In this document: piece after piece, positions 3,053 to 62,346 of the stretch
Position numbering within the stretch: the stretch's first letter is position 1
How the letters are laid out: every line of letters begins with the position of its first letter
Assembly: GCA_041689365.1 (NCBI GenBank)
Contig: JBDNGJ010000188.1
Location: forward strand, 3,150-67,149
DNA: 64,000 nucleotides
Reading direction: 5' to 3'
Origin: Virgibacillus sp.
GTDB taxonomy: Bacteria; Bacillota; Bacilli; Bacillales; Amphibacillaceae
The notes under the pieces: generated by a model
Seen by the model: only the letters and a program-made list of their open reading frames with translations
Databases searched by the model: none
What the model was told of the DNA's origin: nothing
Position numbers and translations under genes: made by a program

Positions 3053-3075
3053 AAGATCAACAAATAAATACGGTT

Positions 3076-3142
3076 CCTCATATATTTTTGAGAATATGGC
3101 TCAAAAGTTTCTACCAAGCACCATAAATGCTGGACTATGAGG
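3076..3142 (+). ncRNA. Purine (guanine-sensing) riboswitch aptamer
   Basis: CCTCATATA..AATATGG..GTTTCTACC..CCATAAA..GACTATGAGG; P1 CCTCATA/TATGAGG; C at the discriminator position (GACTA) indicates guanine. Confidence 0.95.
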
Positions 3143-3187
3143 GAGGATGAATCGTTGTATAGCAACGGTCCGTTTTAAGATGTCGTG

Positions 3188-11561: not shown

Positions 11562-12575
11562 ATGTCAAACGTTTATAAAGATGCCGGTGTCGATGTTGAT
11601 AAGGGGTATGAAGCCGTTGAGCGAATGAAAAAGCATGTTGCCAAAACATCCCGGCCGGAAGTACTGGGCGGAATTGGATCGTTTGCTGGTTTGTTTGAGC
11701 TATCCTCATTCAATTTCAAAGAACCTGTTATGGTTTCAGGGACGGATGGCGTCGGAACCAAGCTAAAACTGGCCTTCCAATTAGGAAAGCATGATACAGT
11801 TGGCGAAGATCTTGTTGCAATGTGTGTCAATGATATCGTTGCACAAGGTGCACAGCCATTATTTTTCCTAGATTATATAGCATGTGGTAAAAACAACCCC
11901 GAAATGATCGAGCAAATTGTTGCTGGAATTTCCAATGGATGTGTTACTGCAGGTGCAGCGTTAATTGGTGGTGAAACTGCTGAAATGCCTGGTATGTATA
12001 GTGATGATGAATACGACTTGGCCGGTTTTACAGTAGGCATTGCTGAAAAGTCCCGCTTAATTACAGGGGACGAAATTACGGCTGGTGATGCCGTTATCGG
12101 ATTGGCATCAAGTGGAATTCACTCGAATGGCTATTCATTAGTAAGAAAACTGGTAGAGGATCTTGATTTAACGAAAACATATGAAGGGTTGTCGAATTCA
12201 CTAGGAGACACACTTTTAACCCCTACCAGGATTTATGCAAAGGCAGTTTCTGCTGTTATGAAAAAAATATCAATCAAAGGAATTTCACATATTACAGGTG
12301 GAGGATTTTACGAAAATCTGCCACGCATGTTGCCTGAAGGACTTGGAATAGAGATTAATCATTCAAGCTGGCAACGTCCCGCAATATTTTCCTTTTTGCA
12401 AAAACAGGGCGACATACCTGATGAGGATATGTACAGCGTATTTAACATGGGAATTGGTATGGCAATCGTCGTTGGCCAGGAAGATGTTGCCGACGTATTA
12501 AATTGCTTACAAGGGGAAACAGCCTCCGTTATAGGGAAGGTTACATCAAACGAAGGAGTGTATTTTACATCATGA
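11562..12575 (+). CDS. purM: AIR synthase
   Basis: [31 protein letters not shown]. Confidence 0.98.
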
Positions 12576-13132
12576 AAAAAATAAGGGCGGCTGTATTCGC
12601 ATCAGGTGCGGGCAGTAATTTTCAGGCTATCATGGAAAATAACGACCTTCTATGTGAAGTTGCGCTTCTCGTTTGTGACAAACCTGGTGCCAGTGTCCTT
12701 GAGAAAGCGAAGAAGTTTGGTGTCCCAACGCTCGTTTTTGATTCAAAGGAGTATGCATCAAAATCTGATTACGAAAAGGAGCTAGTCCGCAGGCTGCAAC
12801 AAGCAGATATTTCATGGATATTTTTAGCAGGGTACATGCGAATAGTCGGACCAACACTACTGCACGCCTATAAAAATAGGATTATTAACATTCATCCATC
12901 AATGCTGCCGGAATTCCCAGGTAAAGATGCAATTGGACAGGCCTTTAAGGCAGGAGTCAGTACGACTGGTGTAACTGTTCACTATATAGATGAAGGAATC
13001 GATACAGGACCAATAATCGCACAGGAATCGGTAGAAGTTTTCAGCGATGATACAGCGGAAACGTTGAAAGAGCGAATCCAGCAAGTGGAGCACAAATTGT
13101 ACCCTATAGTTATCAATCGGCTGATGAAGTGA
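12572..13132 (+). CDS. purN: GAR transformylase
   Basis: [27 protein letters not shown]; ATG 12572 overlaps the purM stop. Confidence 0.97.
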
Positions 13133-13139
13133 GGATGTA

Positions 13140-13482
13140 AACTCGCGCGACAACAGGGGGAACTCGCGCGACAAGTCGAAAACTCGCGCGATAACAGCCG
13201 GAACTCGCGCAACAAGTCAAAAACTCGCGCGACAACAGGTGGAACTCGCGCGAGCGGCACCGAAACTCGCGCGACAACAGGGAGAACTCGCGCGAGCGGC
13301 ACCGAAACTCGCGCGACAACAGGGAGAACTCGCGCGACAGCGTCCCAACTCGCGCGATAGCGGCCGAAACTCGCGCAACAATCACGGAAACTCGCGCGAC
13401 AAGTCGAAAACTCGCGCGATAGCGGCCGGAACTCGCGCAACAAGCACCGAAACTCGAGCGACAGCAGCCAGAACTCGCGCAA
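13140..13482. repeat. 17-unit tandem array, core AACTCGCGCRA with 9-10 nt variable spacers, between purN and purH
   Basis: Cores start at 13140,13161,13181,13202,13222,13243,13264,13285,13306,13327,13347,13368,13389,13409,13430,13451,13472 (period 20-21). Confidence 0.95.
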
Positions 13483-13530
13483 CGACCACCCAAAACAAAC
13501 ATAATATCCAAACAGTGAGGAGTATTCCAC

Positions 13531-15054
13531 ATGAAAAAACGAGCACTAATTAGCGTTTCTGACAAAGCCAACATTACCGAGTTTGCCGATGGACTTGTTG
13601 AATTAGGTTATGAAATTATTTCAACAGGTGGTACGCTGAAAAAATTAACTGAAGCAGGTATTCAAGCTATAGCAGTAGAAGATGTAACAGGTTTCCCGGA
13701 AATGCTTGGTGGCCGTGTTAAAACATTGCATCCGATAATTCATGCGGGGTTACTTGCAAAACGCGATAATGATGATCATCAGAAGCAGCTTGCAGAAAGT
13801 GGCATTCATCCAATAGATATGGTAGTTGTTAACCTTTATCCATTTAAGCAAAAGCTTAATCAATTGGATGTAACGGAAGAGGAAATCGTAGAAAACATTG
13901 ATATTGGCGGTCCTACAATGTTACGTGCAGCAGCAAAAAGTTTTGCTGATGTAACGGTTGTTGTTGATCCGGCTGATTATAACAGCATTTTGGAGTCATT
14001 ACAGGAAAATAGTCTAAACAAAACAGAACGGAAAAAGCTTGCTGCAAAAGTATTCAGCCATACAGCGCAATATGATTCAATGATTGCTAGTTATTTTACC
14101 GAGGATGCTTTTCCTGAGAATTATACCGTAACATATGAAAAGGCGCAGACCTTACGTTATGGAGAAAACCCACATCAAACTGCCGCATTTTATAAAAATC
14201 CAACTGAAACCATAATGAGTCTGGCTTCAGCAAAACAATTGCATGGAAAAGAACTTTCCTACAACAATATCCAGGATGCAAACGCAGCTCTTGAAATAAT
14301 TGCTGAATACGAGAGCCCTACTGCAGTCGCCGTGAAACACATGAATCCATGCGGAATTGGTGTTGCAGAAGGGATAAATCAGGCTTTTTCCAAGGCATAT
14401 GAGGCTGATTCTGTTTCGATTTTTGGCGGGATTGTTGCTTGCAACCGCAAAATTGATGTTGAGTTAGCGCATCAATTAAGCGAGATTTTTCTAGAAATTG
14501 TTATTGCGCCGGAATTTACCGAAGAAGCATTAGTAGTTTTGACGAAAAAGAAAAATATAAGATTGCTTGAATTGGCAATGGTTAATGAGCAGTCAACCTA
14601 TCACAAGCTGACAACGGTAAAAGGCGGCGTGTTAATTCAAAGTAATGATGACGCAGAAGTCGATCAAAAGGACCTTACATTTCCAACGGATAAAAAACCT
14701 TCTGAGGATGAAATCAAGGATCTGTTATTTGCCTGGAAAGCCGTAAAGCATGTGAAATCGAATGCTATCGTCCTGGCTAAAGGAATGCAGACGGTTGGTG
14801 TTGGTGCAGGGCAAATGAATCGTGTAGGGGCAGCAGGAATTGCGCTTGAACAGGCTGAAGAAAAGGCAAAAGGTGCAGTACTGGCATCCGATGCATTTTT
14901 CCCAATGCCAGACACAGTGGAGATAGCTGCAAAGGCTGGTATATCAGCGATTATTCAGCCAGGCGGATCTAAGCGTGACCAGGACTCGATTGATATGTGT
15001 AACGAGTACGGAATTTCCATGGTTTATACGGGGATGCGGCATTTTAAACATTAA
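13531..15054 (+). CDS. purH: Bifunctional AICAR transformylase/IMP cyclohydrolase
   Basis: RALISVSDK, GRVKTLHP, LRYGENPHQ, ASDAFFP. Confidence 0.98.
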   Translation: MKKRALISVSDKANITEFADGLVELGYEIISTGGTLKKLTEAGIQAIAVEDVTGFPEMLGGRVKTLHPIIHAGLLAKRDNDDHQKQLAESGIHPIDMVVVNLYPFKQKLNQLDVTEEEIVENIDIGGPTMLRAAAKSFADVTVVVDPADYNSILESLQENSLNKTERKKLAAKVFSHTAQYDSMIASYFTEDAFPENYTVTYEKAQTLRYGENPHQTAAFYKNPTETIMSLASAKQLHGKELSYNNIQDANAALEIIAEYESPTAVAVKHMNPCGIGVAEGINQAFSKAYEADSVSIFGGIVACNRKIDVELAHQLSEIFLEIVIAPEFTEEALVVLTKKKNIRLLELAMVNEQSTYHKLTTVKGGVLIQSNDDAEVDQKDLTFPTDKKPSEDEIKDLLFAWKAVKHVKSNAIVLAKGMQTVGVGAGQMNRVGAAGIALEQAEEKAKGAVLASDAFFPMPDTVEIAAKAGISAIIQPGGSKRDQDSIDMCNEYGISMVYTGMRHFKH

Positions 15055-43633: not shown

Positions 43634-44625
43634 CTGGGACAAAGAGTGAACCTGTCCCTTTATTCCCCTTACCGTATCGCTTATAGCGGTACGCGATATG
43701 GACGACTCTGTCCTTCTGTAAAGCCTGATTGCGGGGCGGTCTGGATTCTTGAAAAAATAAGTTTGGTTTTAAAATTCCTCAAGAAAAGTGCTAGTTGACT
43801 TTTTTCATATGTATCATATCGCTGGGCGATATGATACAAAATCTCTTCGGAAAATTCATAATTTAATAGATATGGTAATCCGATATATACATGGTAGCTA
43901 AACCCGCAACTAACCATTTGGGACGGTGAACCTGTCCCTCTTGTCCCTCTTGTCCCTCATCGTATCGCTTATAGCGGCACCGCGCTATGGATGAGTTTAT
44001 CCCTTGTAAACCCCAGGTGCGGGAAGGTATGGACTATTGGACAAGAAGATCGGTTTTTAAAAAATGCCTCAATAAACATGTTAGTCGACTCTATTTATAT
44101 GTGTCGTATCGCTACCCGATATGAACATCAACTCTTCAAGAACCTCATAATTTAATAAGTAAGGGGTTCAGATATATAATCCGATGATACGCCCGGAACT
44201 AACCATCTGGGACGATGAACCTGTCCCTATTGTCCCTCCATATCGTTAGGCGATATACTTGCAAATTTTTCGAAAAACCTTCATATTTGATAGATAAGAA
44301 GATTCGGTATAATACATGATGTATACGTTAGAATAGTTGTTTATTATCTTCCAAAAGAGTAGTAGTTATAGTCCTTAATTGCTAGAAATCTTGGTTGAAT
44401 CAAAGGGCGACATATGATATATAGGGAGTTCAATATCTTCGTATCGCTTATAGCGGCACGCGATATGGACATAAAAAGTGTGAGTCGGAGTGGCTAAGTA
44501 TAACGTTAGTCTTTATTATATTCTTCAAAGTATTAGCCTGCCGTGTATGTGCTTCGTATCGCCAGGCGATATACCTTGTAATTTTATCGAAGAACTTCAT
44601 ATTCTACTAGAAAGGAGATCCGATA
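43634..44625. repeat. Iterated degenerate leader modules with TATCGC/GCGATA palindromes, separated by REP-like hairpins
   Basis: Alpha motif at 43675, 43963, 44442; beta motif at 43817, 44107, 44241, 44557; two 288-290-nt tandem units. Confidence 0.85.
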
Positions 44626-45329
44626 TGCGACATGATATACAGCCAAATGAACGATCTTTCACCACGAAGGAAGTAGCAGACGAATTGGAAATCGCAACAC
44701 CTACTGTTAGAAAGTATGGCCAAATTTTAGAGCGAAATGGATATGAGTTTTTTAAAGATGGTGACCGGCGTATTTTCGTTCGTTCTGACATTGAATCGCT
44801 TATAGCGATACGCGATACGGACAAGCCCATAGACGAAACAGCTACATACCTTGTAAATCAACAAAAATTAAGATTAGATGAATTCAATGAAACAGAGATA
44901 ACGATACCTGATTCACCTGGTAATTCACCCCAAGATCTCGGTCAATTAAAAGAATCTTTAATGTTTTTAGCTAATGAATTAGCAGCTACACGTGAAATGA
45001 ATGTTCAGCTGACAAATGATATGTCTCAACTTAAAACTACGGTTTCCCAGCTCCAGCAAGATCATCATGTTATAAGTTCTGGTATCGGAAACTCAGCACA
45101 AAGAACTGCAAGAATTGAGAAATTAACGGAACAACAAAATAATCACTATGAGACGTTGCTGCAACAGGAAAAAGAAAAAAGCGAATTCTTGCAAAAAGAA
45201 ATACAAAATATGCGGGACGAACAGAAAAAAGAATGGCGATTACAAAGTGATTTTAACAAACGTTTAGAAAAATCGATGAAAAAACCTGCAGGAAATTTGG
45301 GTAAGTTCTTGTCCTTGTTTCGTAAATAA
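44625..45329 (+). CDS. MerR-type wHTH + coiled-coil protein with amphipathic C-terminal tail (RacA/pSK1 Par/DUF3967-like architecture)
   Basis: RBS GAAAGGAG before ATG 44625; TTKEVADELEIATPTVRKY HTH; Q/E/K-rich coiled coil; tail LGKFLSLFRK. Confidence 0.7.
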   Translation: MRHDIQPNERSFTTKEVADELEIATPTVRKYGQILERNGYEFFKDGDRRIFVRSDIESLIAIRDTDKPIDETATYLVNQQKLRLDEFNETEITIPDSPGNSPQDLGQLKESLMFLANELAATREMNVQLTNDMSQLKTTVSQLQQDHHVISSGIGNSAQRTARIEKLTEQQNNHYETLLQQEKEKSEFLQKEIQNMRDEQKKEWRLQSDFNKRLEKSMKKPAGNLGKFLSLFRK

Positions 45330-62130: not shown

Positions 62131-62153
62131 ATCCTTGAAACTAAATACGTAAT

Positions 62154-62297
62154 ATTCCTTCGGGGTCGGGTGAAATTCCCAATCGACGGTGATGAAGTAC
62201 ATACTTCTTAGTCCGTGACCCGTGCGGTTTTTAAACCAAGCGGTGGATCTGGTGAAACTCCAGAGCCGACAGTTATAGTCTGGATGGGAGAAGGAAT
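62154..62297 (+). ncRNA. FMN riboswitch (RFN element)
   Basis: ATTCCTTCGGGGTCGGGTGAAATTCCC..GGATCTGGTGAAACTCCAGAGCCGACAGTTATAGTCTGGATGGGAGAAGGAAT upstream of ribD. Confidence 0.95.
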
Positions 62298-62346
62298 TTT
62301 TCAGGTAGTTCGCATGTTTCACTAAAAATGATTAGGCAATGTTATG

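Follow-up and report, generated by a model that had tools for sequence, protein, structure and literature searches.

What is a GC-rich repeat array doing inside the purine operon of a Virgibacillus genome? In the window, which is the whole stretch of 64,000 nt that was analysed, the junctions from purL to purD overlap or measure 18-21 nt, except for the one between purN and purH, where the gap is 398 nt. The original prediction placed 17 cores at 20-21 nt spacing in this gap and proposed that they act either as a protein-binding lattice on one face of the DNA or as an mRNA element that tunes purH and purD. The analysis shows that the block is one locus of a lineage-wide interspersed minisatellite family. 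Of the two proposals, the protein-binding lattice is still a live rival explanation, while a pur-specific mRNA or regulatory role is not supported. An even chance is given to the reading that the family is a self-maintaining DNA-level minisatellite, similar to STAR or MIRU elements, which is tolerated by the pur operon and is not a regulator of it.

The array between purN and purH

The pur operon is headed by a purine riboswitch, its known regulator, and its genes were assigned with Pfam as purL, purF, purM, purN, purH and purD (Table 1). The listed TTG start of purN overlaps purM, and the true start may be later. The TGA stop codon of purN (13130-13132) lies 7 nt ahead of the array. On the other side, the Shine-Dalgarno sequence of purH, GAGGAG (13517-13522), is located 8 nt 5' of the ATG. 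The PurH protein is 96% identical to that of Virgibacillus sp. L01 and 91% identical to that of V. subterraneus. The window also contains an FMN riboswitch at 62152-62299 (RF00050, 116.5 bits).

Table 1. Coordinates of the features in and around the pur array (window positions unless a contig of the source genome is given)
Feature	Position	Strand	Basis or remark
Purine riboswitch aptamer, operon head	3058..3157	+	Rfam RF00167, 84.5 bits, E 2.7e-14
purN (GAR transformylase)	12503..13132	+	ORF list; Pfam Formyl_trans_N, E 1.8e-55
AGTGAGGA, left copy of 8-bp direct repeat, includes purN stop codon	13128..13135	+	sequence
Array, 17 units of 20-21 bp	13140..13482	+ (sense, leading)	core AACTCGCGCRA(C/T/G)A + ~8 variable bases; 59% GC
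Exact 42-bp two-unit duplication	13243..13326	+	unit listing; TRF period 41-42
A/C-rich non-repeat tail, last core to purH ribosome-binding site	13483..13513	+	sequence
AGTGAGGA, right copy, overlaps purH Shine-Dalgarno	13514..13521	+	sequence
purH (AICAR transformylase / IMP cyclohydrolase)	13531..15054	+	Pfam AICARFT_IMPCHas, E 5.5e-125, + MGS
Spurious ORF over array	12982-13530	-	ORF list
Spurious ORF over array	13113-13574	-	ORF list
Spurious ORF over array	13239-13553	+	ORF list
GGTTGATATA arrays in the source genome (G000)	C62:79842-79962, C62:70802-71482, C50:19431-19853, C188:2300-2440, C120, C181, C198, C240		

A pattern search found the 17 predicted cores, all of the form AACTCGCGCRA, where 1.1 would be expected by chance, and none of 100 shuffled sequences reached this number. 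The division of the cores is also as predicted: 12 carry AACTCGCGCGA, four carry AACTCGCGCAA (at 13202, 13368, 13430 and 13472) and one carries AACTCGAGCGA (at 13451). Neighbouring cores are 21 bp apart in 12 cases and 20 bp apart in the other four. TRF gives periods of 21, 41 and 62, in agreement with the dimer structure noted originally, and units 6-7 (13243-13284) are repeated exactly as units 8-9 (13285-13326), which points to slippage or an unequal exchange in the recent past. The segment is GC-rich, with a GC content of 0.58-0.59 compared with about 0.40-0.45 in its flanks and 0.379 in the genome as a whole. Its + strand contains few T residues, and the AT skew rises to +0.6. The existence of an array at purN|purH is supported by arrays at the same site in five other assemblies; it is 343 bp long with internal exact repeats, longer than a short read, and its copy number is that of the assembly.

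The longest repeat flanking the insertion is AGTGAGGA (p about 0.02 against shuffled sequences), which duplicates the region of the purH ribosome-binding site. Since a copy is present on both sides of the insertion, purH retains a ribosome-binding site of its own. The A/C-rich tail that follows the last core is kept in the Virgibacillus orthologues. The array is free of stop codons in all frames of both strands, giving spurious ORFs of 104-182 aa, and gene callers may therefore annotate hypothetical proteins here. The only ORF over the array on the + strand is in a different frame from purH. A coding repeat was rejected: 20- and 22-bp units break the frame, the conservation of the spacers has no 3-nt periodicity and a stop codon precedes the array. 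On the + strand, the array yielded neither a promoter-like nor a terminator-like site. The antisense strand was considered as an intrinsic terminator and rejected, a simple scan giving none on either strand. A known RNA family was also rejected, as Rfam has no match at E <= 1 on 13050-13600; its matches in the rest of the window are the purine and FMN riboswitches and no others.

Units, sites and distribution of the 21-bp family

The source genome contains 142 exact cores, compared with two for a reversed control, at 14 contig sites with 5 to 46 units each. Synteny with Virgibacillus sp. L01 identifies the sites on contigs C296 and C78, and likewise those on C35 and C141, as halves of one split array, which reduces the number to about 12 unrelated loci. 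All four of these sites are at contig ends, where the family breaks the assembly. Past the C35 array, a stretch of 195 nt matches the sequence beyond the C141 array at about 95% identity, short of 100%, which suggests that a segment was duplicated or that the assembly mixes strains. The genes beside the arrays are housekeeping genes with no common pathway; they encode an aldo-keto reductase, a BCCT transporter, MenA, an oligopeptide-binding protein, an LD-carboxypeptidase, an RND pump, Fic, LigD, MntR, ribonucleotide reductase, an ABC-F protein and GalE. With so many unrelated loci in this genome and about 90 arrays in about 20 species, several of them beyond intrinsic terminators at convergent gene pairs, where transcription should be low, the proposed role specific to purH and purD is not tenable.

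The unit, as defined from 19 species, is 21 bp long and consists of a 13-nt core, AACTCG-N-GCGA(G/C)A, followed by about eight variable bases that are GC-rich and T-poor. T makes up only 8.8% of the unit. The core is a short dyad, (C)TCG.NG.CGA(G). The two-turn phasing that was noted for the pur array is general, since 851 of 903 spacings between neighbouring cores (94%) are 21 bp, while 36 are 20 bp and 11 are 22 bp; gaps of 42 and 63 bp are in-register units with a defective core. Compared over about 90 arrays, core positions 1-6 and 8-11 are 0.79-0.99 identical from one array to another, position 7 reaches 0.47 and the spacers 0.29-0.47; within an array, spacer identity is 0.57-0.75. Because array detection leans on the core, 130 in-register units that fail the core pattern were inspected separately. 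These units retain A2 in 128 cases, T4 in 129, G6 in 125, C9 in 126 and G10 in 125. Since the core is kept even in units found without reference to it, the core is truly constrained and the spacers are free, as had been proposed. The most common defect is a change of C5 to T at the CpG of AACTCG (63 of the 130 off-consensus units), which may reflect cytosine methylation or a single variant that was amplified within arrays.

The dyad centre at position 7 depends on the species. It is A in most species, C in 131 of the 154 units of the source genome, A (40) or C (36) in Virgibacillus sp. L01, and T in L. kapialis (131 of 132) and in L. jeotgali. The perfect palindrome TCGCGCGA is therefore peculiar to the source genome, and the 8-bp palindrome emphasized in the original prediction is not the selected feature. 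Genomes G013 and G004 have a dimeric subfamily in which AACTCGCGCGAAAA alternates with AAGTCGCGCGGCCC at a 41-42-bp period. In G013, its short arrays are spread over the chromosome (C1; for example, at 617400, 824387, 1104090, 1644234 and 2456311) more widely than the 21-bp arrays of the A-type, which crowd into 1.05-1.57 Mb.

The purN|purH site carries an array in six assemblies: the source genome, Virgibacillus sp. L01, Virgibacillus sp. JSM 102003, V. subterraneus, L. salicampi and L. kapialis. The unit counts at this site are 17, 9, 14, 10-11, 22-23 and 7, and the spacers differ considerably. The left junction is identical within Virgibacillus. Other sites are shared in the same manner. 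Arrays lie between the oligopeptide-binding protein and LD-carboxypeptidase genes in seven assemblies, between the dicarboxylate symporter and LigD genes in six, and at the ABC-F | epimerase, BCCT | MenA and GalE | HAD sites in several assemblies each. Sites are retained at 61-80% identity of the flanking proteins and across two named genera, with 3 to 47 units per site in the family as a whole. In L. halophilus, the purN|purH site has no array. In a single-gene PurH tree, L. kapialis and L. halophilus are the neighbours of the source clade (support 99/98) and V. oceani falls outside this group, which fits a single ancestral gain at this site and a later loss in L. halophilus. Classical transposition was rejected, because a flanking repeat like AGTGAGGA, or a target-site duplication, is not consistent among arrays.

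Across 185,579 species genomes, tandem pairs of cores are present in Virgibacillus (at least 10 species) and Lentibacillus (at least 9), with a few pairs in Oceanobacillus halotolerans, Cerasibacillus and Tigheibacillus, and single matches at chance level in GC-rich phyla. Tandem pairs are present in 19 of the 25 genomes of one GTDB genus, the Lentibacillus plus Virgibacillus clade of the source genome, with up to 182 per genome. Outside this genus, there is one match in 12 sister genera and none in 24 other families. Within the genus the family is dispensable, since about six genomes have no pairs or only one or two at chance level (G010, G011, G019, G021 and G022, with pairs barely present in G003 and G006). 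Both named genera fall within this GTDB genus, the arrays of L. jeotgali and L. sp. CBA3610 being those of G016 and G017. The family is thus confined to the Lentibacillus / Virgibacillus-subterraneus clade. A plasmid or phage origin was rejected, as those collections gave no match in a BLAST search whose low-complexity filter may have hidden some of the query. The core occurs in the literature only as chance primer matches and a keyword search gave nothing relevant. The 21-bp intergenic repeat family has apparently not been described before.

A second, unrelated arrayed family is present in the same clade. Its core, RGTYGATAT(A/T) (GGTTGATATA), and the roughly 10 variable bases after it recur strictly every 20 bp, with dimers of 40 bp. 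There are eight such arrays in the source genome, with three to at least 35 units, and the one at C188:2300-2440 is about 700 nt ahead of the start of the window. One of them abuts a GC-rich array at the oligopeptide-binding-protein site, both here and in Virgibacillus sp. L01. This family is found mostly in the Virgibacillus/Lentibacillus clade, with single matches in a few other taxa.

The window contains another palindromic repeat at 43634-45329. It is of the ATCGC...GCGAT type, with units of about 280 bp, and surrounds a RacA/Par-like gene (44490-45329). The pur cores had been thought to echo the palindromes at 43.6-44.8 kb, which turn out to belong to this different repeat. A link of the arrays to the RacA/Par-like gene was rejected, as the gene is missing in the array-rich genomes G004, G013 and G015.

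Orientation and maintenance of the arrays

In the source genome, seven of the 12 loci lie between convergent genes, four between co-directional genes (all in the sense orientation) and one between divergent genes. In the relatives, where genes were taken as simple long ORFs, 62 loci divide into 30 sense, 4 antisense, 22 convergent and 6 divergent. Convergent sites are over-represented in both sets. Five arrays of the source genome start 8-50 nt past the terminator hairpin of the upstream gene and two sit before a terminator, while others, including the pur array, fill gaps within one operon. The arrays are therefore located in both transcribed and probably untranscribed DNA.

All arrays on a contig have the same strand (49 of 49 arrays, on 12 contigs from nine species), and this rule covers convergent, divergent and antisense contexts. 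In G013, dnaA lies at 1.924 Mb; on its left the - strand carries at least 26 arrays, with one exception, and on its right four of the six arrays are on the + strand. In G017 (dnaA at 3.214 Mb), the arrays at 2.32-2.56 Mb are on the - strand and one at 0.549 Mb is on the + strand, so that five of five are leading. In G024 (dnaA at 2.713 Mb, on the - strand), all six arrays, at 3.16-3.30 Mb, are on the + strand and leading. The A-rich AACTCG strand is thus the leading strand in these three complete genomes, apart from the exceptions in G013. Most of their arrays are 0.35-0.9 Mb from oriC, in the arm upstream of dnaA. Local GC skew (107 of 124) and the coding majority (102 of 124) do not by themselves separate transcription from replication. 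The polarity tracks the replichore and not the neighbouring genes. Orientation set by transcription was rejected on this ground, and an RNA-level explanation of the orientation is not supported. Since the property common to the copies is a DNA-level one, asymmetric with respect to the fork, a pur-specific regulator is excluded and a general RNA function is unlikely.

If the family is a self-maintaining minisatellite, the reading ranked first, its arrays would grow and shrink in steps of 21 bp (or 42 bp) through replication slippage or unequal exchange, while the core would be fixed by a DNA-level constraint that is asymmetric relative to the replication fork. In the most economical version, units with an intact dyad core would be duplicated or retained, adjacent cores would pair as a hairpin in single-stranded DNA, and arrays in the reverse orientation would be lost. 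The pur array would then be a passenger, transcribed as an untranslated spacer in a riboswitch-controlled operon. The hairpins between neighbouring cores are predicted at -6 to -9 kcal/mol. A core-dependent slippage drive finds no direct support, since the A-type core, which pairs most weakly, is the commonest, and A-type arrays reach 47 units, as long as the C-type arrays with a perfect palindrome. The predicted stability of the single-stranded DNA differs little by strand, and the complement is more stable in 11 of 14 arrays. As for the seeding of new loci, the arrays gave neither a consistent target duplication nor a matching transposase pattern. The sites shared across genera and the extreme conservation of the core exceed what is to be expected of a purely selfish tandem repeat that is prone to deletion and fit functional selection, and the one-arm clustering could indicate a domain function. 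Both points argue against the minisatellite, and its ranking above its main rival, a protein-binding lattice, is not secure.

The lattice explanation is tentative. It supposes that a lineage-specific protein would read the 10-13-bp dyad core, polymerise along the arrays and serve a chromosomal function of the host. The two-turn spacing would place successive sites on one face of the helix, and the arrays would mark or organise the domain near oriC, through compaction, anchoring or segregation, in the manner of matS/MatP, ram/RacA or plasmid centromere arrays. A 21-bp period that is held across the 19 species although the spacers are free favours such a lattice. Against it, the four 20-bp units of the pur array add up to a phase shift of about 0.4 turn from one end to the other. 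The dyad is kept also in the core-blind units, with variation tolerated at its centre only. However, an AA flank on the 5' side alone, together with the strict polarity, is more than a symmetric dimer site needs. The retention of sites across genera and the clustering in the same arm of three complete genomes also point to a host function, but about six species of the genus have no arrays or chance-level pairs, the sister genera have none, and the number of units at a site varies from 3 to 47. The architecture recurs in the second core-plus-spacer family of this clade. A candidate protein did not emerge, the RacA/Par-like gene showing no co-occurrence with the arrays.

A more specific form of this idea is somewhat doubtful. 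Here the Lentibacillus/Virgibacillus clade would have a chromosome-organising system that has so far escaped recognition, with the arrays as its cis sites. A putative protein would read the dyad core, polymerise along the two-turn-phased arrays and so mark about 0.5 Mb of one arm as a replication-polar domain, as a Firmicute counterpart of matS/MatP or ram/RacA. Under such a scheme, the second, 20-bp family may be a sister system.

A function at the RNA level is unlikely. Transcribed on the sense strand, the arrays would serve as U-poor, GC-rich spacers or 3' UTRs whose pairing cores stabilise or partition polycistronic mRNAs, much as REP or STAR-UTR elements would, or titrate an RNA-binding protein, and at the pur locus purH and purD would be tuned relative to purN. 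Between co-directional genes the sense orientation does prevail (30 of 34 in the relatives, four of four in the source genome and 10 of 10 in G002), but the polarity follows the contig and replichore even at convergent, divergent and antisense sites. About a third of the co-directional arrays span the whole gap and must be co-transcribed, yet several arrays lie downstream of terminators. The sense strand has 9% T and is without terminator-like sites or stop codons; its fold, however, is marginally above that of shuffled sequences (z -2.4) and has no dominant structure, and the antisense strand folds equally well. In the available part of one preprint, STAR repeats are reported to be active in a 3' UTR (bioRxiv 10.1101/2023.05.16.541063). 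For the present family, there is no Rfam match and the flanking genes have no pathway in common.

Still less probable is a REP-like element moved as single-stranded DNA by an HUH/Y1 transposase of the RAYT or IS200/IS605 type. HUH/Y1 transposases act on the lagging-strand template. The strict replication polarity and the missing target-site duplications would follow from such action, and the coexistence of subfamilies at many loci (A-, C- and T-type, and the 41-42-bp dimer of G013 and G004) is what would be expected from master elements. However, Y1_Tnp (PF01797) is present in 29 of 37 genera regardless of arrays, is missing in the array-rich G020 (91 pairs) and in G024, and is only a fragment in the source genome. 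The arrays are direct repeats with a loop-less dyad, unlike the self-folding alternating REP hairpins, and their sites are old and syntenic, with no recent scatter. HUH/RAYT mobilisation was rejected, as it has no phyletic link to the arrays.

A neutral VNTR or an assembly artefact with an unconstrained core is scarcely credible and is largely refuted, because the breaks at C78/C296 and C35/C141 are outweighed by an array at purN|purH in six independent assemblies and by the conservation of the core, which exceeds that of the spacer at least threefold, whether one array is compared with another or units picked without reference to their core are considered.

Recognition of the family removes the misreading of the array as a purine-operon regulator and explains recurrent contig breaks and spurious ORFs in annotation. 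The arrays are also ready VNTR markers for the typing of halophiles from food fermentation and saline environments. Four traits are unusual among bacterial 'junk' repeats when taken together: a core that stays fixed from genus to genus with randomised spacers, a strict two-turn period, a strict co-orientation with the fork and the retention of one-arm sites over genus-level divergence. Whether a binding protein or fork-asymmetric slippage is responsible, the family is a tractable system for the persistence of tandem repeats in deletion-biased bacterial genomes.

Relation to known repeat systems

STAR elements of Staphylococcus were reportedly described by Cramton in 2000, and MIRUs, the mycobacterial interspersed repetitive units, reportedly by Supply in 1997. 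The 21-bp family resembles STAR in being made of GC-rich short direct repeats at many intergenic loci of an AT-rich Firmicute genome, with locus-specific spacers, local expansion and contraction, no sign of homogenisation between loci and so far no assigned function (PMC3532100). The STAR signature is 14 bp long, T(G/A/T)TGTTG(G/T)GGCCC(C/A) (Purves 2012, PMC3532100), and in S. aureus and S. lugdunensis its spacers are at least 40 bp long and its loci are not conserved between species (PMC3532100). The core of the present family does not match this signature, its spacers of about 8 nt impose a two-turn phasing that the STAR spacers do not have, and its arrays keep their sites across genera. 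Replichore polarity and one-arm clustering, which are shown here, are not described for STAR in the available part of that paper (PMC3532100).

Like MIRUs, the arrays are tandem minisatellite units of variable copy number (VNTR) with sites inside polycistronic operons. MIRU units are 40-100 bp long, occupy about 40-50 intergenic loci and contain small ORFs that overlap the neighbouring genes for translational coupling (PMC3184786). In the present family, the units are 21 bp long, the purN stop codon lies ahead of the array and the 20-bp units break the frames, so that no such ORF overlap is found; the phylum and the sequence are also different.

REP/BIME elements of enterobacteria and pseudomonads are self-folding imperfect palindromes of about 35 bp in alternating orientation, linked to RAYT (PMC3184786). 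Their partners at the DNA level are gyrase, IHF and Pol I, and they also have effects at the RNA level (PMC3184786). The 21-bp family shares with them GC-rich, dyad-bearing extragenic repeats, convergent and operon sites and hundreds of copies. Replichore polarity is not described for MIRU or REP/BIME in the available part of the source (PMC3184786). Unlike REP/BIME, all units of the present family are direct repeats with a loop-less dyad of 8-10 bp, so that only neighbouring units can pair and the REP palindrome is not found. There is also no co-occurrence with RAYT, PF01797 being unrelated to the arrays.

Plasmid iterons and centromere arrays (F sopC, R1 parC and pSK41 parC) are helically phased direct repeats of about 20 bp with a short protein-binding core that often has a dyad, and each is a single array beside its own rep or par genes on a plasmid. 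The present arrays are likewise tandem repeats in the 17-22-bp range that are phased by helical turns, but there are dozens of them in the chromosome, next to housekeeping genes and not to rep or par genes. CRISPR arrays have repeats of at least about 23 nt, unique spacers of about 30 nt and cas genes. In contrast, the core here has 13 nt, and the 8-nt spacers are related within an array. From its sequence and architecture, the family may be filed among the bacterial interspersed intergenic repeat arrays, as one that departs from STAR, MIRU and REP/BIME in the features by which each of these is defined.
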